NCBI GenBank assembly: GCA_022566215.1
Contig: JADFJJ010000004.1
Span: forward strand, 283 to 64,282
Direction of reading: 5' to 3'
DNA from: Pseudomonadota bacterium
Lineage (GTDB): Bacteria > Pseudomonadota > Alphaproteobacteria > Sphingomonadales > SMXR01
DNA length: 64,000 nt
In this document: positions 3,186 through 61,050 of the stretch, one piece after another
Position numbering within the stretch: position 1 is the stretch's first letter
Layout: every line of letters begins with the position of its first letter
Notes under the pieces: generated by a model
What the model saw: only the letters and a program-made list of their open reading frames with translations
Database searches by the model: none
Told to the model about the DNA's origin: nothing
Position numbers and translations under genes: made by a program

Positions 3186-4280
3186 TTAACCGGCCTTTTT
3201 CTTTTTATTCGTTCCCTCTTGCAGGGGGCTGGCAAGATAGCGCTCAACGGTATGACGGATCAGCACGCCAGCCACCGCCGCCGCCGGAATGGCGATCAGG
3301 ACGCCGACAAAACCCATCAGTTCACCCCCGGCGAAGATCGCGAACAGCACCCAGACCGGATGCAAGCGCACGTGCGACCCGATCAGGCGCGGGGTCAGCA
3401 CCGCCGCCTCAATCCCCTGGACAACGGCGTAAACCGCGGCAATTTTCAGCAGCGGGATCACATCAAGGCCAAACTGGCCAAGACCGATCAGCATTGCCAG
3501 CAGGAAGGTAAACAAGGCTCCGACGAAGGGAATGTAGGCCATCAGCCCGCCAATCAGGCCGAGAACCAGCGCGAACTCCAGACCGACCAGCGACCAGCCC
3601 AAGCCATATAAAACCGCCATCACCAGCGCCGACAGGGTCTGGCCGCGGACAAATCCGCCGAGCGCGGTATCGATATCCCTGCCGATCTTCCTGATCGCCG
3701 GGGCTTTGTCCCTGGGCAGCAAGGCAACCACTTTTGCCATCAGAATATCCCAGTCCCTGAGCAGGAAAAAAGCGGTCACCGGGGTGATCAGCAAAAGCAT
3801 CAAAAGATTAAACAGCGCCATGCCTCCGGACCAGAACCCGGCCAGGATCACCCCGGTCTTGTCCAGCGCGGTGCGCGCGGCACTTTCCAGGAAGCTTTCG
3901 CCGGTGATCCCGGAATCAATATTGAGCGCCCTGGTCACCTGGCTGAACATATCTTCCAGCACCGGGCGGGCGGCCGCGATATAGTCGGGAAGATTCTGGA
4001 TAAATGAGAAAACCTGGGTTTTGACCAACGGAAAAATGGCCGCCAATACCCCCCCGGCCCCAAAAAAGAATAATACCAGCGTCATCACCGTGGCGATCCA
4101 GCGGGGCAGGTGTTTGTTTTTGCCCCAGGGCAGTTTTATCAACTCAAACTTGTCGGTGACCGGGTCCAGCAGATAGGCCACCGCCAGCCCCACCAGAAAC
4201 GGAAGCAAAATTGCTTTGGTGGCATAAACAAACAACAGCAGGGCAATTACCCCGGCCCAGATATACAAACCTTTTTTCAT
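3186..4280 (-). CDS. AI-2E family transporter (PerM/UPF0118-like permease)
   Basis: 364-aa polytopic membrane protein. The C-terminal GELMGFVGVLIAIPAAAV segment is typical of the family. Confidence 0.8.
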   Translation of the reverse strand: MKKGLYIWAGVIALLLFVYATKAILLPFLVGLAVAYLLDPVTDKFELIKLPWGKNKHLPRWIATVMTLVLFFFGAGGVLAAIFPLVKTQVFSFIQNLPDYIAAARPVLEDMFSQVTRALNIDSGITGESFLESAARTALDKTGVILAGFWSGGMALFNLLMLLLITPVTAFFLLRDWDILMAKVVALLPRDKAPAIRKIGRDIDTALGGFVRGQTLSALVMAVLYGLGWSLVGLEFALVLGLIGGLMAYIPFVGALFTFLLAMLIGLGQFGLDVIPLLKIAAVYAVVQGIEAAVLTPRLIGSHVRLHPVWVLFAIFAGGELMGFVGVLIAIPAAAVAGVLIRHTVERYLASPLQEGTNKKKKAG

Positions 4281-8369: not shown

Positions 8370-9863
8370 CTAACCTTCAAAATTATCTTTGACATAGCGG
8401 TCCAGCAGCCGCACCCCATACCCGGTGGCGCCCTTGTCCCACAAACGGCCGGGCTTGAGGGTCCAGACCATCCCGGCGACATCGATATGCGCCCACGGAA
8501 CATCGTTGGTGAAACGCTTCAGGAATTGCGCCGCGGTAATCGAGCCGGCATTGGCGCCATCCCCCACGTTCTTCATATCGGCGATCTGGCAGTTGATCAG
8601 CTTGTCATATTCATCGCTCAGCGGGAAGCGCCAGACCCTGTCCCCGCTCTCCTCACCGGCCTTGGTCAGGGCCTTGGCGATCCCTTCATCGCTGGTGAAA
8701 AAGCCTGCGTACTGGCCGCGCCCGAGGGCGACAATTATCGCCCCGGTCAGGGTCGCCAGGTCAATCATGACCTTGGGTTTAAACGTCTCCTGGCAGTACC
8801 AGAGAATATCAGCCAGCACCAGACGGCCTTCGGCGTCCGTGTTGATTACCTCGATGGTCTGGCCGGAGAGCGATTTGACCACGTCGCCGGGGCGCTGGGC
8901 CTTGCCTGAAGGCATGTTTTCCACCAGCCCGACGATGCCGATGACATTGGCCCTGGCGCCGCGCAGGGCCAGCGCCCTCATGGCGCCGGTGACAATCCCG
9001 GCGCCGCCCATGTCCCATTTCATTTCCTCCATGCCGGCGCCCGGTTTGAGGGAAATTCCGCCGGTATCAAAGGTTACCCCCTTGCCGATCAAGGCGACCG
9101 GGGCCTGACCTTTTTTGCCGCCGCTCCATTTCATGATCGCCACGTAGGATTCGCGGTCACTGCCCTGGCCAACCGCCAGCAGCGCCCCCATGCCGATTTT
9201 CTCCAGTTCTTTTTCACCGAGGATTTCTACCTCGACTCCGTCTTGCTCCAAGGACTTGATGGCCGTTGCAAAACTCTTCGGATAAACGACGTTGGCGGGC
9301 TCGCTGATCAAATCCCGGGTCATGTACACTCCGTCGATCACCAGGTCCATTTCGGCATAGAGGCCTGCCGCCGCTTGGTCAGCGGTGACAATTATGGCCT
9401 CTTCCAGGCGGGCCTTTTTGTTTTCCGGCTGTTTGGTCAGGTATTTGGAAAAATGATAGGCCCTGAGCCGCAGGCCGGCGGCGATGTGTGAAGCAAACTC
9501 ACCGGCCTTGGTTTTTACCCCGCCAGGGGTATCGGCCATAACCGTGAGGAATTTTTCGCCCGAGCGCAGCAGCTTGGCGGCAATTGCGGCGCCAACGTTT
9601 TCAGCGGAAATGGTGGTCACTTCCTTCGCCGGGCCCAGACCAAAAACCAGAAGCCTGGAGAACCCGATATTGGATGGCGCCAATACTTGCACGGCTTCCC
9701 CGCGTTTGCCTTTAAAATTTGAGGTTTTAAAGGCTTGGTCCAGCGCCCCGCCGGTGGCTTTATTATAATGCTTGCCGGTGCTGTCCAGTTTCGGGCCCTG
9801 GGCCGCCAGCAGAACCAGCGCGCCGGTTTCCTTTAGGGCTTTTTCGGAAAATTTTATTTTCAT
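8370..9863 (-). CDS. pepA: leucyl aminopeptidase (M17)
   Basis: M17 motifs NTDAEGRLVLAD and VGKGVTFDTGGISLKP. Start placed at ATG 9863 (MKIKFSEKAL...) rather than the ORF-track 9926. Confidence 0.92.
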   Translation of the reverse strand: MKIKFSEKALKETGALVLLAAQGPKLDSTGKHYNKATGGALDQAFKTSNFKGKRGEAVQVLAPSNIGFSRLLVFGLGPAKEVTTISAENVGAAIAAKLLRSGEKFLTVMADTPGGVKTKAGEFASHIAAGLRLRAYHFSKYLTKQPENKKARLEEAIIVTADQAAAGLYAEMDLVIDGVYMTRDLISEPANVVYPKSFATAIKSLEQDGVEVEILGEKELEKIGMGALLAVGQGSDRESYVAIMKWSGGKKGQAPVALIGKGVTFDTGGISLKPGAGMEEMKWDMGGAGIVTGAMRALALRGARANVIGIVGLVENMPSGKAQRPGDVVKSLSGQTIEVINTDAEGRLVLADILWYCQETFKPKVMIDLATLTGAIIVALGRGQYAGFFTSDEGIAKALTKAGEESGDRVWRFPLSDEYDKLINCQIADMKNVGDGANAGSITAAQFLKRFTNDVPWAHIDVAGMVWTLKPGRLWDKGATGYGVRLLDRYVKDNFEG

Positions 9864-10114
9864 GGTTTGCCTCATCAAAATCGGGGTGAAATTCTTAAAA
9901 AGGAAGTTTTTGGTATAGCCTCCCAATTCTCTAAAGCAAAGACGATTTTTTCGCCATTCCGGCCTTTTCAGCCCATTTGTCCCCTCCCCGCTATTTTTTT
10001 ATTTATTTGTTTTGCCGAACCTGCTTAATAAAATGCCGCCGGAATTTTAGCGAAAGGCTTGATTTTTGCGGCCCAGCTCAAAAAACGCAGACAACCAAGG
10101 CAAACCGAAACCTG

Positions 10115-12274
10115 ATGATTTTGAAAAAATTCTTATCTCTGATGCTGCTGTCCTTGCTGTTGGGGATGCCCACCCTGGCGCCCGCCGGGGAAGAGGATGA
10201 GGTTTTGCTGTTTTCCGCTGAGGAAGTGTCATTTAACCAGAACACCCGTGAGGTGATCGCCACTGGCCATGTTGAGATGTCTCACGGCGGTTATACCCTT
10301 TTGGCCGACCAAGTGACCTATAATGAGCGGACCGGTACTGTTCATGCCTTCGGCAACGTCAAGATCACCGATCCGGACGGCAATGCCCTGTATGTCGACG
10401 AGGCCGAGCTGGATGATGAACTGCGCGAGGGCTTTCTTGTCAATTTACGGTTTGTGTTCCCGGACGGTTCGCGCCTGGCGGCCCGCGACGGCGAGCGGAT
10501 CAGCGGCAACAAGACCGTCCTCAATTACGCCGTTTTCACCCCGTGCGTCATTTGTGACGATCATCCCGGCCGCCCCCCCTCCTGGCAGGTGCGGGCGGTG
10601 CGCGTCACCCACGACCAGCAAAAGAAAAGAATTTATTATAAAAACGCCACCCTTGAGGTGCTGGGCATTCCGATCATATACCTGCCTTACCTGTCGCACC
10701 CCGACCCCACGGTTGACCGCGCCAGCGGTTTTCTGGTTCCCGAAGTGGGCCTGACCCGTGAACTGGGCCTGGTTTTAAAGTTTCCCTATCATATTGTTTT
10801 CTCTCCCTCCAGTGACGCCACCATCACCCCGATCCTGACCACCAAGGAAGGCCTGGTATTGGCCGGGGAATACCGCCGCCATCTCGGCTTCGGCCAGTTT
10901 CACCTGGAAGGCAGCGTCACTTATGTCGATGAACGCGATGCCGATAACCTCAAGACCGGCGACAAGCAATTGAGGGGACATTTTTTCGCCAACAGCCAGT
11001 TCAAACACAGCGAAAACGTCAGGACCCGGGTGCGCTTCCAGCTGGCCAGTGATGATACTTATCTGCGCCGTTATGGCTTTAGTGATGTCGACACCCTGAA
11101 AAGCGAATACATTACCGAAGCCTTTATGGGGCGGTCCTACTACGCTATCCGGGCGCTCTGGTTCCAGGGTCTTCGGGTCGAGGATATTTCTGGCCTGACC
11201 GGGTTTGCCCTGCCTTTGGTCCAGCTCAACCACGTCGCCCAGCCGGACCGGATTGGCGGGGTCTGGCGCATTAATTTCAACGGCCTGGCGCTGCACCGGA
11301 GCGATGGCATGGATACCCGCCGCCTTTCCTTGAGGGGGTCTTATGAAATTCCCTATACCACCCGGGTCGGCCAGATCTTGAGGCTGGGGATATATCTGCG
11401 CGGAGATCTTTACAACATCAGCAACGCCGAACGCCCGGATTCCCCTTTCTTTGCCGGCCAGAACGGGACCGAAGGGCGGTTCCTGCCTGAGTTGAGCGCC
11501 AGTTTTGAATGGCCGTTTATCAAGACCAGCGGCTCTTCCCAGCAAATTATAACTCCGGTGATTACCCTTATCGTTGCGCCCACCGGCGGTAACCCGGCGG
11601 CATTGTCCAATGAAGACAGCCGCACCTTTGAATTGACCGACACCAATATCCTTTCGATTGACCGGCTGCCGGGCCTGGACCAGTGGGAAGGCGGCACCCG
11701 GACGAACTTTGGCCTCAAATGGATGCTGAATTCAAAAAACCTGAACATCGAAGCCTTTATCGGCGAAAGCTACCGCTTTACCATCGCCGGCGATGACCCG
11801 GAGGATATTTTCTTTTCCCAAGGCTCGGGTCTGTCCGGCCACCTCAGCGATCTGGTCACCCGCTTCATCATCACCTTTGATGACAAGCTCACGATCTCCA
11901 GCCGGATGCGGCTGGATAATGATGACCTGACGGTGCGCCGCAACGAAATTGACGCCACTCTCTATTTCAAAAACACCCGGGTCGGAATCGGCTATTTCAA
12001 ACTGAACCGCAACCGTCAGCTGGAGGAACTGGAGGACCACGAGGAAATCCGTCTTCATGGCACCTGGTCATTCAAAACCAACTGGCAGTTTTTCGGTCAC
12101 CTGACCCGCAACCTCACCACCACCGGCAGCACCATCAGCCAGGGGCTGGGTGTTATGTATGTGGATGATTGTGTCGAGTTGAGCATTTCATGGCGCAAGT
12201 CTTTCACCAGCGACCGCGATATTGTTCCCGGAAGCTCGCTGCACTTCAGGATCAGGTTGAAACATTTGGGCTAA
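10115..12274 (+). CDS. lptD: LPS-assembly outer-membrane protein LptD
   Basis: Signal peptide MILKKFLSLMLLSLLLGMPTLAPA, an OstA-like N-terminal domain (VTYNERTGTVHAFGNVKITDPDG) and a large beta-barrel. It heads the conserved lptD-surA-pdxA-rsmA run. The ORF-track start 9977 is a TTG extension. Confidence 0.9.
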   Translation: MILKKFLSLMLLSLLLGMPTLAPAGEEDEVLLFSAEEVSFNQNTREVIATGHVEMSHGGYTLLADQVTYNERTGTVHAFGNVKITDPDGNALYVDEAELDDELREGFLVNLRFVFPDGSRLAARDGERISGNKTVLNYAVFTPCVICDDHPGRPPSWQVRAVRVTHDQQKKRIYYKNATLEVLGIPIIYLPYLSHPDPTVDRASGFLVPEVGLTRELGLVLKFPYHIVFSPSSDATITPILTTKEGLVLAGEYRRHLGFGQFHLEGSVTYVDERDADNLKTGDKQLRGHFFANSQFKHSENVRTRVRFQLASDDTYLRRYGFSDVDTLKSEYITEAFMGRSYYAIRALWFQGLRVEDISGLTGFALPLVQLNHVAQPDRIGGVWRINFNGLALHRSDGMDTRRLSLRGSYEIPYTTRVGQILRLGIYLRGDLYNISNAERPDSPFFAGQNGTEGRFLPELSASFEWPFIKTSGSSQQIITPVITLIVAPTGGNPAALSNEDSRTFELTDTNILSIDRLPGLDQWEGGTRTNFGLKWMLNSKNLNIEAFIGESYRFTIAGDDPEDIFFSQGSGLSGHLSDLVTRFIITFDDKLTISSRMRLDNDDLTVRRNEIDATLYFKNTRVGIGYFKLNRNRQLEELEDHEEIRLHGTWSFKTNWQFFGHLTRNLTTTGSTISQGLGVMYVDDCVELSISWRKSFTSDRDIVPGSSLHFRIRLKHLG

Positions 12275-14653: not shown

Positions 14654-15495
14654 GCGCCGATCCCCTGCCCCCCTTGCGCGAGGTAATTGCCGCCTCGGGC
14701 CTGAGCGCAAAAAAAAGCCTCGGCCAGAATTTCCTCCTCGATTTGAATATCACCCGCAAGATCGCCCGCGCGGTGCCAAACCTTGAGACCGCCCACGTCC
14801 TTGAGGTCGGCCCCGGTCCCGGCGGCCTGACCCGGGGGCTGTTGCTGGAAGGGGCGGCGAAAGTCACCGCGATCGAAAAAGATGCCCGCTGCATTCCCGC
14901 TCTGGAGCAAATTCAGGAGCATTATCCCGAGCGCTTTTGCTTTCATATCGGCGATGCGCTGGAGGCCGATGAAAAGGATTTGCTGGGGGAGGGAAATCTT
15001 AAACCCCAGATCGCCGCCAATCTTCCCTACAACATCGCCAGCGCGTTCCTGGTCAAGTGGCTTGAGGGTGAGCCGTGGCCGCCGTTCTGGCATTCTCTGA
15101 CGGTGATGCTGCAAAAGGAAGTGGCGCTGCGCCTGGTGGCCGGCCCGGGCGTCAAGACCTACGGGCGCCTGTCGGTTCTGGCCCAGTGGCGTTCAATTCC
15201 TAAGATCCTGTTTCACATCCCGCCCGAGGCCTTTACCCCGAAACCGAAGGTCACGTCCTCGGTAATCCAGATTATCCCCTCTCACCCGGCGGTGGCGGGC
15301 CTGACTGGAAAGAAAATATCCGCTTTTACCCAAACCCTGTTCGGCCAAAGGCGCAAGATTTTGCGCAATGTGTTGAGGCCGTTCGGGGAAACAGTCGGCG
15401 ATGTTTTGGCAAATGAAGGGATTAACCCCGGCTTGAGACCCGAAAATCTGAGCGTGGAGGAAATTTGCCGCTTGGCGAAAAAATTAATAAATTAA
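14650..15495 (+). CDS. rsmA: 16S rRNA (adenine1518/1519-N6)-dimethyltransferase
   Basis: KSLGQNFL, VLEVGPGPGGLT and ANLPYNI motifs. 4-nt overlap with the pdxA stop. Confidence 0.93.
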   Translation: MSADPLPPLREVIAASGLSAKKSLGQNFLLDLNITRKIARAVPNLETAHVLEVGPGPGGLTRGLLLEGAAKVTAIEKDARCIPALEQIQEHYPERFCFHIGDALEADEKDLLGEGNLKPQIAANLPYNIASAFLVKWLEGEPWPPFWHSLTVMLQKEVALRLVAGPGVKTYGRLSVLAQWRSIPKILFHIPPEAFTPKPKVTSSVIQIIPSHPAVAGLTGKKISAFTQTLFGQRRKILRNVLRPFGETVGDVLANEGINPGLRPENLSVEEICRLAKKLIN

Positions 15496-16130
15496 ATTTC
15501 TTGCGACATTAAATTTTTGACAAAATCAACCAGCCATTTTTGACGAATTCGTTTTTTGCGTTCAACCTTCAGAATAGTCTTAATTTCTTTCAGGTATTCG
15601 TCAAAGTCCTGGTTAACCAGCACATAATTATATTCAGGCCAATGACTAAGTTCGTCGTGCGCCGTTTCCATTCTCTTTTCTATTTGTTGTTTTGTATCTT
15701 GTCCGCGGCTCATCAATCTTTCCCTTAGAGCGGAAATTGTCGGCGGAAGAATAAAAATACTCACCACATCGGAAGAGTTCTTTTGCAAAATTTGTTGCGT
15801 CCCCTGCCAGTCTATATCGAACAAGACATCTTTCCCCTCTCTCAGGGCCTCTTCCACGTCTTTTTTGGGAGTGCCGTAGGCATGATCAAAAACCGTGGCG
15901 TATTCCAGAAAGGCTTCCTCATCGACCAGCTTCTGAAAGGTCGCCTGGTCGACGAAATTGTAATCCTCGCCATCCACCTCGCCGGGGCGTTTGGGCCGGG
16001 TGGTGGTGGAAATGGAGAGAACCGTCTCGGGGTCCTGCTCGATCAGCGCGCGCGACAGCGTGGTCTTGCCGGCCCCCGAGGGAGAAGACAGAACCAGCAT
16101 CAAACCACGGCGTTTCGCCTTTTCTGTCAT
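15492..16130 (-). CDS. gmk: guanylate kinase
   Basis: P-loop LSSPSGAGKTTL and TTRPKRPGEVDGEDY. Convergent with rsmA; the two stop codons overlap. Confidence 0.95.
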   Translation of the reverse strand: MTEKAKRRGLMLVLSSPSGAGKTTLSRALIEQDPETVLSISTTTRPKRPGEVDGEDYNFVDQATFQKLVDEEAFLEYATVFDHAYGTPKKDVEEALREGKDVLFDIDWQGTQQILQKNSSDVVSIFILPPTISALRERLMSRGQDTKQQIEKRMETAHDELSHWPEYNYVLVNQDFDEYLKEIKTILKVERKKRIRQKWLVDFVKNLMSQEI

Positions 16131-16208
16131 AAGTCTTTTTTCTCAAGTTAAGGTGCGTTAAAAGCTAACCGACTATAAAAGGAACTGGAACATCATTCAA
16201 ATAGACAT

Positions 16209-16479
16209 TTAGGGTCTGGACTGAATTACCGATGAGGGCTGTGCCACAGCCAAAATCGGTCAGAACAAGGAAAAAGGGATGAAAAATAGCCATTTATTTG
16301 AAGCGCTTTTGACAAAGTTCCGCCCGATTTGGGCGTGGCCTCTCCGAGGTTGGCCTGAAAAAGCAGTAAAATGCGTCGAAAATACGCGCCGATACCCCAT
16401 ATCGCCTGTGTTTTTCTCCTCTTTTACAATTTTTTCAGGACCAACACAGTTCCACTCGGCAACCCGGTTCAGGCCCTAA
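16209..16479. repeat. expanded copy (A) of a palindromic TTAGGGTCTG...CAGRCCCTAR intergenic element
   Basis: The left arm TTAGGGTCTGGACTGAATTACCGATG (16209-16234) matches copy B at 23/26. The right arm CACAGTTCCACTCGGCAACCCGGTTCAGGCCCTAA (16445-16479) matches at 28/35. About 210 bp lies between the arms. Confidence 0.7.
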
Positions 16480-17246
16480 TGAAAAACCCGAAAAATATCC
16501 TGATCACCGGCGCCTCCAGCGGAATTGGCGAGGAAGTGGCCAAACAGTACGCGGCCCCGGGCATCACCCTGGCGATTACCGGGCGCAACAAGAAGCGCCT
16601 TGAGGCGGTCAAAAAGGCGCTCCAGGCCAAGGGCGCTGCCGTGATCGCCAAGGTACTGGATGTCACCGGCCAGAAGGCGATGGAAACCTTTATCCGTGAG
16701 GTCGATAAAACCGCCCCGTTGGATCTGGTGATCGCCAACGCCGGGGTCGGGGTCCAGGCGGGCGATTTCAAATCCGTTGATCAGGCCGCCAAGTTCACCA
16801 TCACCGTCAATGTCTTCGGGGTTTTCAACACCATCCACCCGGCGCTGGAGATTTTTGAAGCACGCGGCCGCGGCCAGATCGCGATCGTCTCATCCCTGGC
16901 CGGCTGTATCGGCCTGCCCGGCTCTCCGATCTATTCCGCCAGCAAAAACGCGGTCCGGGCTTACGGCGAGGCGCTGCGGGCGGTCTATCAGGGTAAAGGG
17001 ATCGAGATCAACGTCATCTGCCCGGGCTGGGTGCGGAGCCGGATTACCGATAGGAACGAATATTCGATGCCGTTCTTTATGGAGGTGGATAAGGCGGCCG
17101 CCATCATCATCCGCGGGTTGGCGAAAAACCAGGCGCGGATATCCTTCCCCGCCCCGATGGCGGCATTAATCAAGACCATGACCATCCTGCCGATCAGCCT
17201 GGCGCTCAAAATCCTTGGCCGCATCACCATGCGCGGCCGGGCTTGA
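16479..17246 (+). CDS. SDR family oxidoreductase
   Basis: ILITGASSGIGEE (TGxxxGxG) and YSASKNAV (YxxxK). Start placed at ATG 16479 (MKNPKN...). Confidence 0.85.
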   Translation: MKNPKNILITGASSGIGEEVAKQYAAPGITLAITGRNKKRLEAVKKALQAKGAAVIAKVLDVTGQKAMETFIREVDKTAPLDLVIANAGVGVQAGDFKSVDQAAKFTITVNVFGVFNTIHPALEIFEARGRGQIAIVSSLAGCIGLPGSPIYSASKNAVRAYGEALRAVYQGKGIEINVICPGWVRSRITDRNEYSMPFFMEVDKAAAIIIRGLAKNQARISFPAPMAALIKTMTILPISLALKILGRITMRGRA

Positions 17247-26445: not shown

Positions 26446-27221
26446 AAACCAGGGTAAAAATATCAATCCGGAATTTGACCAAAAGCTTTGGCTCCAACCA
26501 GGTTCTCAAAGGGCTCGACCTCGATATCATGGAAGGCGAATCGGTGGTTGTGATCGGCGGCTCCGGCACCGGCAAGTCGGTGCTGGTCAAATGCATCCTG
26601 GGCCTGTTGGCGCCGGATAGCGGCGAGATCCTGATCGACGGCCGCGACATGACCACTGCCAGCCGCGCCGAACATGGCGAATTTATGAAAAAGGTCGGCA
26701 TGCTGTTCCAGGGGGGCGCGCTGTTTGATTCCCTCACGGTCTGGGAAAACGTCGCCTTCGGCCTGATCCGGGCGCACGGCATGAACAAGGATGAAGCCCA
26801 CGGGATTGCGATCAAAAAACTGGCCCGGGTCGGGCTCGGGGAAGACGTCAGCGGCCTGACCCCGGCGGAGCTGTCGGGCGGCATGAAAAAGCGCGTCGCG
26901 CTGGCCCGGGCGATCGCCGCCGAGCCCGAGATCATCTTCTTCGACGAGCCGACCACCGGCCTCGACCCGATCATGGCCGATGTCATCAACCGCCTGATCA
27001 CCGAATGCGTCAAGGAGCTCGGCGCCACCACCCTGACCATCACCCACGATATGTCGAGCGTCCGCAAGATCGCCGACCAGGCTGCCATGCTCCACGACGG
27101 CCGGATCATCTGGCATGGCAGCCGCCGCGCCATGGACACCACCAAAAACCCCTTCGTGCGCCAATTCACCACCGGCAGCGCCAAGGGGCCGATCAAAATG
27201 ATCACCCGAGGGCCGGAGTGA
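26442..27221 (+). CDS. mlaF: MlaF-family ABC transporter ATP-binding protein
   Basis: Walker A GGSGTGKS, signature LSGGMKKRVALARA and Walker B IIFFDEPTTGLD. 4-nt overlap with mlaE. Confidence 0.9.
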   Translation: MKTRVKISIRNLTKSFGSNQVLKGLDLDIMEGESVVVIGGSGTGKSVLVKCILGLLAPDSGEILIDGRDMTTASRAEHGEFMKKVGMLFQGGALFDSLTVWENVAFGLIRAHGMNKDEAHGIAIKKLARVGLGEDVSGLTPAELSGGMKKRVALARAIAAEPEIIFFDEPTTGLDPIMADVINRLITECVKELGATTLTITHDMSSVRKIADQAAMLHDGRIIWHGSRRAMDTTKNPFVRQFTTGSAKGPIKMITRGPE

Positions 27222-28585
27222 TGGCCAGCCTTAAGCAAACCTTCGTGTGCCAGTCGTGCGGGGCGGTCAGCAGCAAATGGCAGGGCAAATGCGATGCCTG
27301 CGGGCAATGGAATTCTTTTGTCGAGGAAGCCCCGCTGGAAGCCCCCGGCTTTGAGGGCGGCGCCAAAAAGGGCAAGGTGGTGACGTTCGCCAGTCTCGCC
27401 GCCAAGACTCAGCTGGACCCCCGCCTGATGACCGGGATCGGGGAATTCGACCGGGCGCTGGGCGGCGGAGCGGTGCCCGGCACGGCGATCCTGGTCGGCG
27501 GCGATCCCGGCATCGGCAAATCCACCCTGCTGCTGCAGGCGTTGGCCAACATGGCCAAAAGGGGCCTGAAGTGCGTTTACATTACGGGCGAAGAATCGGT
27601 CGACCAGATCAGGCTGCGGGCGGCGCGCCTTGGGCTCGGGGATGCCGACGTCAAGCTGGCCTCCGAGACCCGGGTGCGTGATATCCTGACCACTCTTTCC
27701 GGGGCTGAAAAATTTGATGTGGTGGTGATCGATTCGATCCAGACCATGTATTCGGACGCCGCCGGCGCCTCCCCCGGGTCGGTCACACAGGTCCGGCTGT
27801 CGTCCCAGAACCTGATCCACTTCGCCAAGAAATCCGGGACCGCGATCTTCCTGATCGGCCATGTCACCAAGGACGGCCAGATCGCCGGCCCCAAGACCAT
27901 GGAGCACATGGTCGACACGGTTTTGTATTTCGAAGGCGAGAAAACCCAACAGTACCGGATCCTGCGGGCGGTCAAGAACCGTTTCGGCGGGATCGATGAA
28001 ATCGGCGTGTTCGAAATGACCGGAAAGGGTCTGATGGAGGTTAAAAACCCCTCCTCGCTGTTTCTTTCCGAACACAAGGAAAACACTGAAGGGGTGGCGG
28101 TGTTCCCTTCTGTAGAGGGAACCCGTTCGCTGCTGGCGGAGATTGAGGCGCTGGTGGTCCCCTCGTCCGCCGCCAACCCGAGGCGCGCGGTGGTCGGCTG
28201 GGACGCCGGAAGGCTGGCGATGATCCTGGCGGTCCTGGATTCCCGGCTCGGCCTCGGTTTCGGGGCCTCGGACATTTACCTCAACATCGCCGGCGGCCTT
28301 CGGGTGGTGGAGCCGGCGGCGGACCTGCCGGCGGCGGCGGCGCTGATCTCGTCACTGACCAAACGCGCGCTGCCGGCCGATATGGTTATGATCGGGGAAA
28401 TTTCGCTGTCCGGGGAGATCCGCCCGGTCACGCACCTTAAAGCCAGATTGAAGGAAGCGGAAAAGCTCGGTTTCGCCCGCGCTCTGGTGCCCGCCGCTTC
28501 CAAACTGCCCAAAACCTCGCTTAACCTGATAAAAGCGGAAAAAGTGGCGGACTTACTGGATTTATTTGAAATGAAAAAAGGATAG
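27221..28585 (+). CDS. radA: DNA repair protein RadA
   Basis: Zinc ribbon CQSCGAVSSKWQGKCDACGQWNSF, Walker A GGDPGIGKSTLLLQ, KNRFG and a Lon-like C-domain. ATG 27221 overlaps the mlaF stop (TGATG). The last ~10 codons are AT-rich and contain the left island repeat. Confidence 0.95.
   Translation: MASLKQTFVCQSCGAVSSKWQGKCDACGQWNSFVEEAPLEAPGFEGGAKKGKVVTFASLAAKTQLDPRLMTGIGEFDRALGGGAVPGTAILVGGDPGIGKSTLLLQALANMAKRGLKCVYITGEESVDQIRLRAARLGLGDADVKLASETRVRDILTTLSGAEKFDVVVIDSIQTMYSDAAGASPGSVTQVRLSSQNLIHFAKKSGTAIFLIGHVTKDGQIAGPKTMEHMVDTVLYFEGEKTQQYRILRAVKNRFGGIDEIGVFEMTGKGLMEVKNPSSLFLSEHKENTEGVAVFPSVEGTRSLLAEIEALVVPSSAANPRRAVVGWDAGRLAMILAVLDSRLGLGFGASDIYLNIAGGLRVVEPAADLPAAAALISSLTKRALPADMVMIGEISLSGEIRPVTHLKARLKEAEKLGFARALVPAASKLPKTSLNLIKAEKVADLLDLFEMKKG
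28557..28569. repeat. left copy of the 13-bp direct repeat TGGATTTATTTGA (att-like)
   Basis: Exact match to 30325-30337. Lies in the final codons of radA (LDLFEMKKG*). Confidence 0.85.
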
Positions 28586-28589
28586 AGAA

Positions 28590-29393
28590 ATGGCAAAACA
28601 ACCTGAACTTCGTCAAGCCCAACTGTCCAAAGAAGAAATGGAAAGGGCAATAATAAAGATAGATCGTAGGATAGCTGAAATCAATGATTTCGATATAGAG
28701 TCCATTGCCGAAAGAAGTGATCCAAAAATTAAAGCCCTTGAGGTAAAACTTGATGCCCTTCTAATGTCAATTTTCGACGCTGATACGCATGAATATAATC
28801 GATATAGTCGCAGTGTAACCAGAATTGACAGAGCAGGCTATAGTACGCACGGCACCCCAATTGAAGAAGTGAGGGAAGGATTAAAAAATGGTCTCGGAGC
28901 TTCAAAAGCTCAACTGGAAGGAATAAAGTCTGGCTTCCTTGAGGATTTGGAGGATATGGGTTTTTCCTCAGGAGTTGCTCCTGAAACAAAGCAATCACTA
29001 TCCTCCACGCTGGAGGGTTTGCATCAAGAAATTCAAGAAAAATGTTTGCAAACTTTTGAGGCAGGGGCTTTCGCTGAGGCGGTTGAAAAAAGTTTCAAAA
29101 TTGTTCGAGACAAACTTAGAAACCTGACGGGCCACGAAACCGGCTCAGAGGCCTTTGGAAAGGGAAATCTACACATAAAGGGAGCTGCAGCCGCGAATGT
29201 CGAAGATGATTTTAACCAGGCTGTAAAATTTTTGACGATGTCCATTGATATGTTCAGAAATGAAAAAAGCCATACATCCGACGGCCAGATTGATGACCCC
29301 GTGCGAGCCCACCATTATTTAACATTGAGCAGCCTTGCCTTAAATTTACTTGAAGGGGCCGAAATTAGGCCCAAGCCTAAGATTGACAGGTGA
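28590..29393 (+). CDS. hypothetical protein: coiled-coil N-half plus TIGR02391/Hypoth_Ymh-like C-terminal domain
   Basis: 267 aa. The C-terminal ~120 aa (AFAEAVEKSFKIVRDKLRNLTG...FNQAVKFLTMSIDMFRNEKSHTSDG...AHHYLTLSSLALNLL) matches my recollection of the TIGR02391 pattern (helical, conserved RN-x3-H). AGGA lies upstream of the ATG, which is 4 nt after the radA stop. Confidence 0.6.
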   Translation: MAKQPELRQAQLSKEEMERAIIKIDRRIAEINDFDIESIAERSDPKIKALEVKLDALLMSIFDADTHEYNRYSRSVTRIDRAGYSTHGTPIEEVREGLKNGLGASKAQLEGIKSGFLEDLEDMGFSSGVAPETKQSLSSTLEGLHQEIQEKCLQTFEAGAFAEAVEKSFKIVRDKLRNLTGHETGSEAFGKGNLHIKGAAAANVEDDFNQAVKFLTMSIDMFRNEKSHTSDGQIDDPVRAHHYLTLSSLALNLLEGAEIRPKPKIDR

Positions 29394-29460
29394 TTTACCA
29401 AAACGATAGGCTCTTGCTTAAATTTACCAATTCGTCGAACCATCGGCCAGAGGGTTTAGT

Positions 29461-30312
29461 ATGAATTTTGCCGCCATAGATTTTGAAACCGCCAACTCAA
29501 AGCGAACCAGTATTTGTCAGGTTGGTCTTGCTATTTTTCAAAACGGAAAACTTAAGGAGCAATGGACCTCGTTGGTAAACCCTAAAGATTATTTTGAACC
29601 GATGAATATCTCAATTCATGGAATTGAGGAATCTGATGTGAAAAAAGCCCCTCTTTTCCCTAAAATTTATGAAGGTATTAAGGCAAGAACCAAAAATTTA
29701 GTAGTCGTGAGTCACACAACTTTTGACCTTGTCGCTTTGGAACAAGCTGTAAAATTACATAAATTGAAAGAGTTTGAATGTGATTGGTTAGATACTGCGA
29801 GCGTAGCAAGAAGGGCATGGAAAGAATTTTCCCAAACTGGTTATGGTTTAGGAAATTTAGCTTCTGAATTTGGATTTAAGTTTAATCACCACGATGCGGG
29901 TGAAGACGCCCGCGTGTGTGGCGAAATTCTAGTTAAAGCAATTAAAGACACCGGTATAAATCTCGAAGATTGGCTTGAAAGGGTACAAAAACCAATATCC
30001 CCTAGCTCTTCCTATGTCTCTCTTGAAGGAAATATACAAGGTCCGCTTCTTGGCGAAGTTGTTGTTTTTACAGGGGCGCTATCTATGTCAAGAAGAGAAG
30101 CTGCAGAAATGGCTGCTCAGGTGGGATGTGATGTAAAATCCAAGGTTACTAAAAAAACCACTCTTTTGATTTTGGGGGATCAGGACATCTCTAAACTCCA
30201 GGGCCATACTAAGAGTTCTAAACATAGAAAAGCCGAGGAATTGATTTCAAAGGGACATCAAATAAGAATTATTGGGGAAACTGACTTCATCGCCCTAACA
30301 AAGTTATATTAG
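29461..30312 (+). CDS. DEDDh 3'-5' exonuclease (DnaQ/RNase T-like) fused to a C-terminal BRCT domain
   Basis: ExoI AAIDFETAN, ExoII VVSHTTFDLVAL and ExoIII HHDAGEDARVCGEI. The C-terminal VVFTGALSMSRREAAEMAAQVGCDVKSKVTKKTTLLILGD is BRCT-like. GAGGG RBS upstream. Confidence 0.8.
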   Translation: MNFAAIDFETANSKRTSICQVGLAIFQNGKLKEQWTSLVNPKDYFEPMNISIHGIEESDVKKAPLFPKIYEGIKARTKNLVVVSHTTFDLVALEQAVKLHKLKEFECDWLDTASVARRAWKEFSQTGYGLGNLASEFGFKFNHHDAGEDARVCGEILVKAIKDTGINLEDWLERVQKPISPSSSYVSLEGNIQGPLLGEVVVFTGALSMSRREAAEMAAQVGCDVKSKVTKKTTLLILGDQDISKLQGHTKSSKHRKAEELISKGHQIRIIGETDFIALTKLY

Positions 30313-30324
30313 GCGTTTCTGCTT

Positions 30325-30337
30325 TGGATTTATTTGA
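30325..30337. repeat. right copy of the 13-bp direct repeat TGGATTTATTTGA
   Basis: Exact match to 28557-28569. In the corresponding frame it reads LDLFDIKAKA*, a plausible displaced native radA tail. Confidence 0.85.
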
Positions 30338-30382
30338 TATAAAGGCGAAGGCCTGAAAAATGAGGAGATGTGAGGATAAAAT

Positions 30383-31054
30383 ATGTTTGGTTTGAACGTC
30401 TTTGACATAATCTTGAGCATTGTGATGATTGTCTCGACCCTGGGGGGATTTTCCAAGGGGTTTACCACCGAAGTTCTGAAAGTCGTGGCCTGGGCCGGGG
30501 CGATCTTTTTGACCATCATCGCCCTGCCGATCTCAACCAGCTTCATGGCGGATTACATCTCCTCGCTTTTTCTGGCCAAGCTGGTGGGGATGGCCGTCAT
30601 CTTTGTGGTCAGTTTCTTTTTTCTCAATTTTCTCGCCAAGTTTGTCGGCGGGCGCATCCGCTCTTCCTTTATCGCCCCGATCGACCGGGGACTGGGGGCG
30701 CTGTTCGGATTCGCCCGCGGGGCGCTGATCCTGTCCGCGGTCTATCTGATGTACAGCTACCTGGCGGCCGAGAAGGACCAGCCCGCCTGGCTGATGGAAG
30801 CGCGCTTCCAGCCGCTGCTGGCTGACGGCGCCGCGGCCCTGAAGGCGATTACCCCGGAGCTGTTCGCACGCGCCGGGGAAATCACCGATGAGGCGCTGGC
30901 TGTGGATACCGATACGATCCTCCAGAATATGAAAACCAATATGCCGGACCCCGGCGGGGTCAAGGATGCGGTGGTGGATTATACCCTTGAACACCGCGAT
31001 GAACTGGAGGATTTGATCGAAGAAGTTGGCGGCGGAGAGGACCAGGAGGGGTGA
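30383..31054 (+). CDS. cvpA: CvpA family membrane protein (colicin V production protein homolog)
   Basis: 223 aa with 4 predicted TM helices at the N-terminus. Classic position immediately upstream of purF. Confidence 0.85.
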   Translation: MFGLNVFDIILSIVMIVSTLGGFSKGFTTEVLKVVAWAGAIFLTIIALPISTSFMADYISSLFLAKLVGMAVIFVVSFFFLNFLAKFVGGRIRSSFIAPIDRGLGALFGFARGALILSAVYLMYSYLAAEKDQPAWLMEARFQPLLADGAAALKAITPELFARAGEITDEALAVDTDTILQNMKTNMPDPGGVKDAVVDYTLEHRDELEDLIEEVGGGEDQEG

Positions 31055-31145
31055 TTATTTGCTTTCCTTTTGGCGGGAAACTGGTAGAAGGCGGGGCAAC
31101 AACCCTGTCCTACAGGAAAAGAGGCGTGCTGAGCCGCGATCATTG

Positions 31146-32627
31146 ATGACCGAGCGTTTAGATAAAGCCCTGCCCAGGCACCCTTTTGATGACGACAAAT
31201 TACGCGAAGAATGTGGTGTATTCGGGATTTTCGGCTCCAAGGATGCCGCCCCGCATACTGCGCTTGGCCTTCATGCCCTGCAGCACCGGGGGCAGGAATC
31301 GGCTGGTATTCTGTCCTTTGACGGCCAGACCTTCCACATCCACCGGGCGCTCGGCCTGGTCGGCGACAACTTTTCAGAAAATTCGGTTATCTCCCGGCTG
31401 AAGGGCCATGCGGCAATCGGCCACGTCCGTTATTCGACCGCCGGGGGAACTATTTTGCGCAATGTCCAGCCGCTGTTCGCCGAATTATCCTCGGGCGGGT
31501 TCGGGATTTGCCACAATGGCAACCTGACCAACGCCGGGCTGCTGCGCAAGCAACTGGTCAAGCGCGGCGCCATTTTCCAGTCGACCTCGGACACCGAGGT
31601 GATTATCCACCTGATGGCGACCTCCAGCTATTCGACCTTCCTGGACCGCTTCATTGACGCCCTCAGGCAGCTTGAAGGCGCCTATTCGCTGGTCGCCATA
31701 ACCCCCAAAGGCCTGATCGGGGTGCGTGATCCCTTAGGGGTCAGGCCGCTGGTGCTGGGGCAGCTGGAAGACGGGGTGCAGATCCTGTCGTCGGAGACCT
31801 GTGCGCTGGATATTATCGGCGCCAAGTACGTCCGTGACGTCCAGCCCGGCGAGATTGTCAACATCACCCGCAAGGGCATCACCTCGATGAGCCCGTTCCC
31901 GCGCCTGAAACCCCGGCCGTGCATTTTCGAACATGTTTATTTCTCCCGCCCCGACAGTTTTGTCGACCAGAAGAACGTCTATGGGGTCAGGAAGCGAATC
32001 GGCGCGGAACTGGCGGCGGAAGCCCCGGCCAAGGCCGACCTGGTTGTCGCGGTTCCCGATTCGGGAAACCCGGCGGCGATCGGTTATGCCCAGGCGGCAA
32101 AGCTGCCGTTTGAAATGGGAATTATCCGCAACCACTACGTAGGCCGCACCTTTATCGAACCGACCGACCATATCCGCCACCTCGGGGTCAAGCTGAAGCA
32201 CAACGCCAATGCTGGCCAACTTAAGGGCAAATCGGTGATTCTGGTCGATGACAGCATTGTCCGCGGCACCACCTCGGTCAAGATTATCGATATGGTGCGC
32301 AACGCCGGGGCCAAGGAGGTGCACATGCGCATCGCCTCGCCGGCGATCACCCACTCGTGCTTTTACGGGGTCGATACCCCGAACCGTGAGGAATTGCTGG
32401 CCTCGCGCATGGATGTCGACAAGATGGCCGGATACATCGGTGCCGACAGCCTGGCTTTTGTTTCCATGGACGGGCTGTACCGGGCGGTGGTCGGGGATGC
32501 GCGAAACAACGCCAGCCCGCAGTATTGCGACGCCTGTTTCTCGGGCGAATATCCGACCTCCCTGAGCGATCTGGCGGAAGGCGACGAACCCCGTCAGCTT
32601 TCCCTTATTTCAATTAAAATTCAATAA
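31146..32627 (+). CDS. purF: amidophosphoribosyltransferase
   Basis: Ntn-Cys CGVFGIFG after a short propeptide, PRTase loop VILVDDSIVRGTT and a C-terminal Cys cluster (CDACFSGEYP). Start at ATG 31146, not the ORF-track 31026. Confidence 0.95.
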   Translation: MTERLDKALPRHPFDDDKLREECGVFGIFGSKDAAPHTALGLHALQHRGQESAGILSFDGQTFHIHRALGLVGDNFSENSVISRLKGHAAIGHVRYSTAGGTILRNVQPLFAELSSGGFGICHNGNLTNAGLLRKQLVKRGAIFQSTSDTEVIIHLMATSSYSTFLDRFIDALRQLEGAYSLVAITPKGLIGVRDPLGVRPLVLGQLEDGVQILSSETCALDIIGAKYVRDVQPGEIVNITRKGITSMSPFPRLKPRPCIFEHVYFSRPDSFVDQKNVYGVRKRIGAELAAEAPAKADLVVAVPDSGNPAAIGYAQAAKLPFEMGIIRNHYVGRTFIEPTDHIRHLGVKLKHNANAGQLKGKSVILVDDSIVRGTTSVKIIDMVRNAGAKEVHMRIASPAITHSCFYGVDTPNREELLASRMDVDKMAGYIGADSLAFVSMDGLYRAVVGDARNNASPQYCDACFSGEYPTSLSDLAEGDEPRQLSLISIKIQ

Positions 32628-59442: not shown

Positions 59443-59859
59443 CTAGTCGTCGCGGTGGACCTTTTCCATTTTTTCGTGCATTTCCTGGGCTTCCAGGGTC
59501 ATCGAGGCGATCGGGCGGGCGTCCAGGCGTTTCAGGTTGATGGGCTCGCCGGACACTTCACAATAGCCGTATTCGCCATTTTCCAGCTTGCCCAGCGCCG
59601 TTTCAATCTTGGTCACCAGCTTTCTTTGCCGGTCGCGGGCGCGAAGTTCGATCGACCGGTCGGTCTCCGACGAGGCGCGATCGGCGATGTCCGGCTCTTT
59701 CAGGCTTTCCGTCTGGAGTGATTCCAGAGTGCCCATGGCTTCCTTCAAAATCCGGTCTTTCCAGATCAGCAGCTTGCGGCGGAAATATTCCTTTTGCCGG
59801 GCGCTCATGAACTTTTCAGTTTCGGACGGGGAATAATCCTTGGGCAGTCGGGTGGCCAT
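59443..59859 (-). CDS. dksA: RNA polymerase-binding regulator DksA (single-Cys variant)
   Basis: 138 aa with coiled-coil tip DIADRASSETD. The C-terminal YGYCEVSGEPINLKRLDARPIASMTLEAQ aligns to the DksA zinc-finger region. Confidence 0.9.
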   Translation of the reverse strand: MATRLPKDYSPSETEKFMSARQKEYFRRKLLIWKDRILKEAMGTLESLQTESLKEPDIADRASSETDRSIELRARDRQRKLVTKIETALGKLENGEYGYCEVSGEPINLKRLDARPIASMTLEAQEMHEKMEKVHRDD

Positions 59860-60208
59860 GAAAGTCTCCTTGAATGAACTGCATTTGTCTTGTTATCGGC
59901 GCGTTAATGACGCGGAAATTTGACGCGCGGGGGTTTTATAATAACAAGTGCTTTTGATTGCAAGGGGGGTTTTGAGATTTTTTTTACAAGGCCCGGGTTA
60001 TCGGCTGCGGCCCCGGCAAGATTAAAAAAAGCACCCCAAGGCCGTACCAAGCAAACACCACCCGGAGTTATCTTTATAAACTAAAGCAACTAAGAATGAG
60101 TATTACCATTATTTGATTACATTTATTTGTGAATCAATCTGCCTGATATTTGTTTTTTTATTCATTTCACAGGTGATTAAATTAAATTACTTGCCTGAAA
60201 TTCTTTTT

Positions 60209-60255
60209 AATAATAACATAATAGATACTTTTTGATAATAATATAATAAATACTT
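60209..60255. repeat. two 22-bp near-identical direct repeats in an AT-rich tract
   Basis: AATAATAACATAATAGATACTT (60209-60230) and GATAATAATATAATAAATACTT (60234-60255) match at 19/22. Confidence 0.7.
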
Positions 60256-60750
60256 GAGCATCGGGATAATGTTATATTTTAATTTAGCAACCAAAAGAGA
60301 TTTTAAATAACTACCGCGCCAACAAAAATTGCCGAGGGGGGTATGCAAATTTCTCGAGACAACAGCACCGGACACCGGATCGCCGCGAAACTCATTCAAG
60401 CTTTTCGGGGGCGCTGCCTATCCGGGAGCGGGACCCGCCGCTTTTTTCAACGCTTGAGAGGTCATACCGGTTTCTTCTTGATGACTGTCTGGGGCAGCTG
60501 GCGGGCAAAGCGCTAAAACCCATAAGGCGAATGAAAGATGTTGTTGAAAAAATGCTAAGAATAAGCGGCGGCGGCGTGATCTTTTTGACGTTCGCCGGCG
60601 GGCGGTTACCGCCGCAGCGCACGGCACAAATAGGGCCAGAACGCTGGCTTACACGGTGGAAGGAAGGCTTTTGGCCTTGGAAATGATGGGCCTGATGGCG
60701 GATTGCTGCTATCGATTTAAGGTTCCCGGCAATTTAGAAGGAGGCTACCA

Positions 60751-61050
60751 ATGAAATACCAATTGAAGTTATATGTCACCGGGCGCACCGGACCCTCAAC
60801 GCGCGCCATCAAAAACCTTGAGCGCATCTTACAGGCGCAAACCGGTGATGATTATGATTTCAAAGTGATTGATGTTCTTAAGCATCCGCAGCTGGCGGAA
60901 GACGAAAAAATTCTTGCCACCCCGACGCTGGTAAAGACTTTTCCAGAGCCGATACGCAAAATCATAGGTGATCTCAGCCAGCTTGAAAACGTTTTGCTGG
61001 GACTGGATATAATTCCCTCCCCGGGTTCAACCAAAAAGGAAAAATCCTGA
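60751..61050 (+). CDS. kaiB: circadian clock protein KaiB
   Basis: 99 aa. [23 protein letters not shown]...[40 protein letters not shown] closely parallels cyanobacterial KaiB (LKLYVAGNTPNS...[22 protein letters not shown]...RRIIGDLS). GGAGG RBS upstream. Confidence 0.9.

Follow-up and report, generated by a model that had tools for sequence, protein, structure and literature searches.

How did two genes of foreign composition come to lie between the DNA-repair gene radA and cvpA in a bacterium of the Sphingomonadales lineage SMXR01, with radA still in frame? We addressed this question in a 64,000-nt stretch of contig JADFJJ010000004.1 (assembly GCA_022566215.1, forward-strand positions 283 to 64,282; hereafter the window), where a sequence-only reading had proposed a low-GC island of 1.8 kb in the 3′ end of radA. 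Comparison with relatives shows a precise insertion that gives radA a new tail, carries two genes, is present in some close strains and absent from others, and recurs at the same nucleotide of radA in other lineages. We put at about 0.5 the probability that this islet belongs to a family of integrase-less cassettes that are inserted site-specifically and mobilised in trans.

A precise insertion in the last codons of radA

A scan of the GTDB species genomes with RadA listed matches of no more than 60% identity, which were used for synteny, and relatives closer than these came from a later search with RadA. The RadA sequence P0001 equals the window RadA over the aligned part, yet it ends ...LDLFDIKAKA. 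The contig encoding P0001, L083, is from a metagenome-assembled genome (MAG; GCA_022567935.1) and is identical to the window at 99.3% of positions upstream and 98.9% downstream of the locus. It reads GACTTAC-TGGATTTATTTGA-TATAAAGGCGAAGGCCTGA, followed by 26 nt and then cvpA, with one copy of the repeat and no islet. Aligned to this empty site, the window has a precise insertion of 1,768 bp, and the right repeat copy together with the next 19 nt is the displaced native end of radA, as the sequence-only reading had supposed. The nearest single-nucleotide polymorphisms (SNPs) between the window and L083, at 28441 and 30367, occur at background density, indicating that no donor-type flank was imported with the island and that the flanks are of the local type up to the core.

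The 13-mer TGGATTTATTTGA stands at both boundaries, where the sequence-only reading had placed it, and a search of the window that tolerated one mismatch found no third copy (0.06 expected). Of the exact direct repeats within 27500-31500 this one is the longest, a 13-mer common to shuffled 70-nt boundary zones arose in only 1 of 10,000 trials, and the likeness runs on imperfectly to 19 nt (17/19). Both copies read in the radA frame as had been described: the left one gives L-D-L-F-E-M-K-K-G-stop, and the right one L-D-L-F-D-I-K-A-K-A-stop, with its TGA at 30354-30356, 26 nt before the cvpA ATG. The last five codons and the stop of the present radA come from the insertion. This surrogate tail, AATGAAAAAAGGATAG, is not in the empty site, in line with the earlier view of the left end as element-borne, and it also contains the AGGA ribosome-binding site of the first inserted gene. 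In terms of attachment (att) sites, attB reads GACTTAC-TGGATTTATTTGA-TATAAAGG, attL reads GACTTAC-core-AATGAAAA and attR reads TTCTGCTT-core-TATAAAGG; the left-end motif is AAAGGWTAGAGAAATGG.

Native radA tails in the clade are of the type found at the right copy. In L086 (RadA 87% identical), radA ends LDLFDIKAKA and cvpA follows 25 nt on, and the radA-cvpA junction holds one repeat copy and a native-type tail in L083, L086 and L102. Within the 90% identity cluster, 12 of the 14 complete RadA C-termini are native (DIKAKA and single-residue variants) and two are occupied, ending E-M-K-K-G (P0125, the window's own) and N-L-F-E-I-K-K-G (L087). Most RadA relatives from 87% to 72% identity also end D-I-K-x-x, and the alleles linked to an insertion end E(M/I/L)K.. 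or DKKKG. The radA genes of the clade thus do not natively end like the left copy, which would have spoken against an insertion. The predicted empty-site 26-mer, ACTTACTGGATTTATTTGATATAAAG, had no match in JGI metagenome contigs and is present in the NCBI MAG contig L083. A cvpA-based scan of metagenome contigs was set aside, for its patterns matched but no match encoded a relative.

The composition of the insertion sets it apart as well. Its GC content of 0.41 is the lowest of any stretch of that length in the window (mean 0.568, standard deviation 0.034), and the GC values that had been counted by hand proved exact: 0.35 at 28621-28680 and 0.40 at 29701-29760, against 0.717 at 28261-28320 in radA. 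A milder fall begins at about 28500, ahead of the repeat; it is a native feature, since the final 100 nt of radA have a GC content of 0.48 in the empty-site contig L083 too. After radA the drop is about 0.22 in the window, compared with a largest value of 0.115 among 80 other alphaproteobacterial radA loci. Among the matches listed, cvpA lies downstream of radA in 58 of these 80 loci, typically after a gap of 10-50 nt, and neither inserted gene is present in any of the 80. The two genes are therefore neither conserved in the order nor host-like in composition, the other outcome that would have told against an insertion.

Table 1. Features of the radA-cvpA locus, in window positions
Feature	Position	Strand	Evidence or remark
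radA, 454 aa, as now read	27221..28585	+	TIGR00416 RadA equivalog, 547.7 bits (cutoff 403); identical to P0125
Left copy of the 13-bp repeat (attL core), in radA codons L-D-L-F	28557..28569	+	
Surrogate radA tail AATGAAAAAAGGATAG (..E-M-K-K-G-stop), element-borne	28570..28585	+	Not in empty site L083; homologous left ends in L084 (19/24 nt), L087 and L085
Insertion, 1,768 bp, GC 0.41	28570..30337 (equivalently 28557-30324)	+	Alignment to L083; composition
ORF1, 267 aa	28590..29393	+	All-helical N-terminal domain, then C-terminal Ymh-family HEPN domain with R223-N-E-K-S-H228
ORF2, 283 aa	29461..30312	+	DEDDh 3′-5′ exonuclease domain and C-terminal BRCT domain
Right end of element, 12 nt from ORF2 stop to repeat, GCGTTTCTGCTT	30313..30324	+	
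Right copy of the 13-bp repeat (attR core)	30325..30337	+	
Displaced native radA tail TATAAAGGCGAAGGCCTGA (..D-I-K-A-K-A-stop), now non-coding	30338..30356	+	Identical to the functional radA end of L083 and the tails of P0001, P0002 and others
Native radA-cvpA spacer, 26 nt	30357..30382	+	Same in L083 save SNPs at 30367 and 30372
cvpA, conserved downstream neighbour of radA (purF follows it)	30383..31054	+	PF02674, 89.4 bits; synteny

Recurrence in close strains and diverged lineages

The same islet, at 99.6-99.9% identity, is carried by L081 and L082 (samples SRR24269693 for L081, and SAMN16252670 and SAMN16252661 for L082 and L087). On the right flank, the occupied L081 shares the haplotype of the empty L083, indicating that occupancy is uncoupled from the flanks.

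Beyond these strains, the same two open reading frames (ORFs) lie between radA and cvpA in L085 (GCA_044233465.1; RadA 77% identical), with amino acid identities of 70-71% for ORF1 and 67-68% for ORF2. The insertion in L085 is at the same nucleotide of radA as in the window, and radA there ends E-L-K-G-N. Its repeat, TGATATCTTTGA, is 12 bp long, is made of the host's own D-I-F codons and differs from that of the window at 3 of 13 positions, and the pseudo-tail beyond it is intact and native-like (D-I-F-D-I-K-D-R-P-stop). An empty site is at hand for this lineage too: L102, whose RadA is 94% identical to that of L085, has one repeat copy and the tail D-I-K-N-R-T.

The cassettes of the window and L085 are about 30% diverged, and four-fold degenerate sites between the two are saturated in cassettes and flanks alike. 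Despite this, GC at third codon positions (GC3) of the cassette is unameliorated in both hosts, at 0.31-0.37 against 0.74-0.84 for host genes in the window and 0.58-0.66 in L085. In each of the two, attR equals its own attL and the pseudo-tail is of the local native type. A neutral attR core and pseudo-tail could not have stayed intact over saturating divergence, suggesting that the cassettes were acquired separately at the same nucleotide. On this comparison, the insertions in the window and L085 would be separate events rather than one ancient event.

A third lineage, L084 (RadA 84%; JGI 3300009514, Ga0129284_10015248; 3480-3758), has a radA tail ending D-K-K-K-G-stop. Its left end shares 19 of 24 nt with that of the window, including TAGAGAAATGG, and then enters an unrelated first gene (MDGWLAALIIGFFGF..., probably encoding a membrane protein), of which the contig holds 69 codons before it stops. 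For these 69 residues the homologue search returned no homologues and Pfam no match. The surrogate tails E-M-K-K-G, E-I-K-K-G, E-L-K-G-N and D-K-K-K-G resemble one another and the native D-I-K-x-x. In the window and L085 the match to the native sequence stops at ..TTTGA, and in L084 at ..TTTGATA; such variation between elements is more in keeping with a homologous att region than with a fixed cut.

The most conserved cassette DNA between the window and L085 is at the 3′ end of ORF2 (window 30212-30316, L085 about 11000-11105), with 84-89% identity against 66% overall, and within the right-terminal 100 nt or so of the islet many synonymous sites are conserved as well. This conservation could come from protein constraint on the BRCT C-terminus or from a cis-acting end sequence.

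The two cargo genes and the rest of the window

ORF1 scores above the curated cutoffs of both PF09509 (53.9 bits; cutoff 25) and TIGR02391 (70.4 bits; cutoff 39.45). Its Rx4H motif is intact, and across 25 homologues N224, E225, K226 and H228 are invariant and R223 is nearly so. ORF1 is predicted to be a HEPN RNase. Ymh HEPN domains are known to keep an Rx4-6H motif; some stand alone, others are fused to N-terminal domains of the Abi type, and their gene neighbourhoods are often those of restriction-modification systems (PMC3710099). The structural model of ORF1 (predicted local distance difference test score, pLDDT, 85.6) has a helical N-terminal half with a fold that found no match, and searches for a solved homologue by sequence and for a significant Foldseek match were both negative. 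ORF1 starts 4 nt past the radA stop, and no plus-strand terminator-like site was found between radA and cvpA. Together with the ribosome-binding site in the surrogate tail, these features make it plausible that ORF1 and ORF2 are expressed by read-through from the radA operon.

Homologues of ORF1 (45-62% identity) occur in a prophage with an ImmA-like peptidase as neighbour, next to a DUF6119 gene and in low-GC islets after nrdJ; a search of IMG/VR found no close relative. The nrdJ islets, which follow the gene for a class II ribonucleotide reductase in other MAG lineages (L088:4059-4850, L089, L090 and L101:4899-5630), have ORF1 homologues of 56-58% identity 10-96 nt after the nrdJ stop and a GC content of 0.48 against 0.64. 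They were dropped as evidence for the same mechanism, no flanking repeat of at least 10 bp being found in L088.

ORF2 combines an exonuclease domain (PF00929, 62.2 bits; cutoff 24) with a BRCT domain (PF00533, 25.7 bits; cutoff 21.3), and all its catalytic residues are there: D7 and E9 (DFET), D89 (TTFD), and H144 and D149 (HHDAGED). The exonuclease-BRCT architecture is that of the PRK06195 and phrog_192 type; ORF2 matches the former at 214.9 bits, which is below that model's cutoff, and the latter, annotated as 'DNA polymerase exonuclease subunit', over its full length (7e-42). Among defence profiles, PADLOC gave partial matches of the cargo to the candidate systems PDC-S48 (1.6e-30, over profile positions 5-179 of 411) and PDC-S35 (5.3e-5, over 6-103 of 264). 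Plasmids carry homologues of ORF2 (40-52% identity), whose neighbours are either a type ISP restriction enzyme and methyltransferases or lnu(F) and a TIR gene, and others are in three viral contigs. The closest one outside the clade (52%; L098) is on plasmid pHRM2a (NC_012109.1, 59653-68489), in a same-strand run of small genes that includes lnu(F), a known integron cassette gene, and the TIR-domain gene; this run may be a cassette array.

The pairing of ORF1 with ORF2 is no described system, and homologues of each occur singly on plasmids, prophages or other islets. With low-to-moderate confidence, domain content and gene neighbourhoods suggest that the cargo consists of conflict or defence genes, probably two independent ones.

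Two other AT-rich regions were observed in the window. One takes in gmk, which encodes guanylate kinase (15492-16130, minus strand; PF00625, 2e-51), and the DNA around it, where GC falls to a minimum of 0.39 in 400-nt windows within 15201-16500. The other, at 59860-60750, is ORF-poor, has the lowest GC of the window in 400-nt windows (0.34) and no Rfam match, and is flanked by a dksA-like gene (59443-59859, minus strand) on its left and a kaiB-like gene (60751-61050) on its right. Over the whole window, Rfam matched a tRNA-Gln alone.

How the islet may have entered radA

Under the reading that we favour, the 1,768 bp including one repeat copy would be a small integrative cassette, which entered the last radA codons when a short core on the element, probably circular at the time, recombined with its exact counterpart in radA (here TGGATTTATTTGA). 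With the element come a five-codon tail, a stop and a ribosome-binding site, so that RadA stays intact while the native tail is pushed 1.8 kb downstream. What spreads would be the two-gene unit without a recombinase, and we infer that a host or helper element supplies the recombinase in trans, because it is the integrase-less unit that recurs. Between close strains the cassette would also move by homologous recombination of the flanks, but such recombination alone cannot explain the clean insertion into local native sites. A direct repeat with one copy in the gene, a native-like substitute tail, empty sites and the use of one nucleotide in three lineages make up the footprint of Campbell-type integration, and they point to att recombination of the integrase type. 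The sequence-only reading had offered a decayed island and a cassette mobilised in trans as alternatives; the evidence leans to the second, and the first is weighed below as a rival.

Several observations weigh against this reading. No integrase, transposase or excisionase domain was found in ORF1 or ORF2 by profile search, as had been noted from the sequence, and a test of 20 further large ORFs of the window, which are housekeeping genes (ppk, lptD, surA, pdxA, fabF, guaA, guaB, acrB, alaS, recA and others), brought up no recombinase. The expected attP is TTCTGCTT-core-AATGAAAA, with the junction ...GCGTTTCTGCTT-TGGATTTATTTGA-AATGAAAAAAGG..., and patterns of this type and of the left end had no match in IMG/VR, the sole set scanned, so that neither an attP nor a circular form was found there. 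No cassette copy was seen adjoining an integrase. A search of the element for arm-type repeats and for convincing inverted core sites found neither. An inverted repeat in the native site, CTTT/ATTT-GATAT-AAAG, was judged too weak, with arms of 3-4 bp. As to the cargo, ORF1 and ORF2 are found together only at radA, and the L085 ORF1 (9366-10160) carries K where Rx4H has its catalytic R (FKNEKSH), alone in this among the 25 aligned homologues. L087 adds a further point, being a mosaic in which 26 of the 30 island mismatches fall in 30183-30318 and four in the other 1,600 bp or so. The recombinant tract (L087:5134-5286) covers the last 135 nt or so of ORF2 and the right core, and the rest of the islet is 99.7% identical; the attR core, TAGATATATTT, is of a third type and unlike the attL core of the same contig, TTAATTTATTTGA, so the tract comes from a third allele type. 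Homologous recombination thus certainly shuffles alleles and could explain part of the spread.

The best of the other explanations, although an unlikely one, is that the islet is what decay has left of a larger island with an integrase at the radA 3′ end, either a prophage or an integrative and conjugative or integrative and mobilizable element (ICE/IME), which is no longer self-mobile and owes its distribution to repeat-mediated deletion and flank recombination. Such a remnant would strictly be a cis-mobilizable element (CIME), defined as an element with attL and attR but without integration or transfer genes (PMC5704250). With direct repeats kept and mobility genes gone, the islet qualifies descriptively as CIME-like under this definition (PMC5704250), and both the full-length likeness of ORF2 to a phage exonuclease family and the active homologous recombination seen in the L087 mosaic and the shuffled flank haplotypes would suit decay. 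The CIMEs of streptococcal ICE/IME systems likewise lie between attL and attR in the 3′ end of a housekeeping gene; however, they are described as decay products that move by accretion, whereas the islet has no known parental element, and the same integrase-less unit appears to have been inserted independently in two diverged lineages. L085 has the same two-gene architecture inside its own intact native site at saturated divergence, and two independent decays to one 1.8-kb unit are unlikely. Moreover, no larger element was found at radA in the occupied contigs with an assembled right end, and none of the 80 other alphaproteobacterial radA loci has a comparable GC drop.

We give somewhat less credit to an enzyme akin to a transposase or casposase, whose staggered cuts, spaced by 12-13 bp, would fall at a preferred site of the radA tail, so that the repeat would be a target-site duplication. 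The repeat is the host's own sequence in both cases, TGGATTTATTTGA in the window and TGATATCTTTGA in L085, and as these differ at 3 of 13 positions, a target-site duplication would explain them more simply than co-adapted att cores, a further point against the cassette reading. The right boundary also falls after ...TTTGA alike in the window, L085 and L084, with repeat lengths of 13 and 12 bp. However, the island has no transposase, and no inverted repeat pair joins the element ends (by eye, 8 of 12 positions match in the window and 3 of 12 in L085). The first bases of the element vary (AATG, TAAA, GTTG), its end mimics the native tail with an identity 2-3 nt longer in L084, and insertion at exactly the same nucleotide in three lineages is what one would sooner expect of a site-specific recombinase.

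Less probable again is a single illegitimate, microhomology-driven insertion in an ancestor, kept as a long-lived polymorphism and spread only by homologous recombination of radA and cvpA/purF. Mosaic tracts do exist, and the cassettes of the window and L085 (67-70% amino acid identity) have diverged nearly as far as the flanking core proteins (70-77%). Over such a time, however, the neutral attR core and pseudo-tail should have decayed, yet in each lineage they still match attL and the local native end; the window flanks stay local in type as far as the core, the cassette GC3 is unameliorated, and L084 joins a related left end to unrelated cargo. That the repeat is coincidental and the two genes are ordinary residents between radA and cvpA can be dismissed: AT-rich DNA does favour short repeats and the window has other low-GC patches, but near-identical and related genomes have empty sites with exactly one repeat copy (L083 refutes the idea outright), a shared 13-mer in the boundary zones has a chance of about 1e-4, and the genes are absent from the 80 other radA loci.

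Integrase-mediated islands at the 3′ end of protein-coding genes are known, such as SGI1 at trmE and ICESt1/3 at fda. Like the islet, they supply a replacement tail that keeps the gene intact and leave precise empty sites in relatives; they differ in encoding their own tyrosine integrase, and often an excisionase, over tens of kb, against 1.8 kb with two cargo genes only. To our knowledge, radA has no report as an integration target. Integron gene cassettes and Xer-dependent dif modules are small, promoter-poor units of exchangeable cargo without a recombinase, which use a fixed site and an enzyme encoded elsewhere. The L084 allele fits their pattern in joining other cargo to the shared left end, but the islet lies inside a protein-coding gene and no attC-type site was found at it, there being only 12 nt from the ORF2 stop to the repeat and no suitable inverted repeat. 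Xer-dependent modules (IMEX) are flanked by 28-bp dif-like XerC/XerD sites, and by eye the core bears no likeness to E. coli dif. Tn554-family elements of staphylococci are also site-specific, lack inverted terminal repeats and use the 3′ region of a DNA-repair gene. They have their own transposition genes and a 6-bp core, as against the core duplicated as a 13-bp repeat in radA; Tn554 inserts at att554 in radC (bioRxiv 10.1101/2020.09.30.320143), and was therefore dropped as a precedent for radA. Defence islets at core-gene hotspots of E. coli and Pseudomonas (PMC10121019, PMC10250203) similarly hold variable low-GC conflict-type cargo between core genes and are polymorphic among close strains; the radA islet differs from them in having junctions defined to the nucleotide and no integrase.

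The islet is thus a small genomic island of an ordinary kind, in which the target gene, the host clade and the cargo are new, and its main point of note is the apparently repeated integrase-less insertion with no compositional amelioration. A further and rather doubtful proposal is that the radA tail of this uncultured alphaproteobacterial clade is a dedicated docking site for recombinase-less cassettes with a conserved left end (surrogate tail and ribosome-binding site) and exchangeable cargo, which a trans-acting enzyme would insert and remove. If true, this would be an integron-like or Xer-module-like cassette system within the last codons of a protein-coding gene, and the lack of amelioration in the cassette would follow from its being inserted time and again out of a low-GC reservoir. 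For annotation, it follows that a gene's C-terminus may be element-derived, and a RadA tail E-M-K-K-G marks the insertion; with its Ymh HEPN protein and DEDDh-BRCT exonuclease, the cargo supplies another pair of candidate conflict or defence genes. With occupied and empty alleles matched in two lineages and junctions known to the base, the locus offers a clean natural system for the movement of small integrase-less islets, and if the cassettes are indeed moved in trans, complete genomes of the clade could reveal the enzyme together with its core of 12-13 bp.

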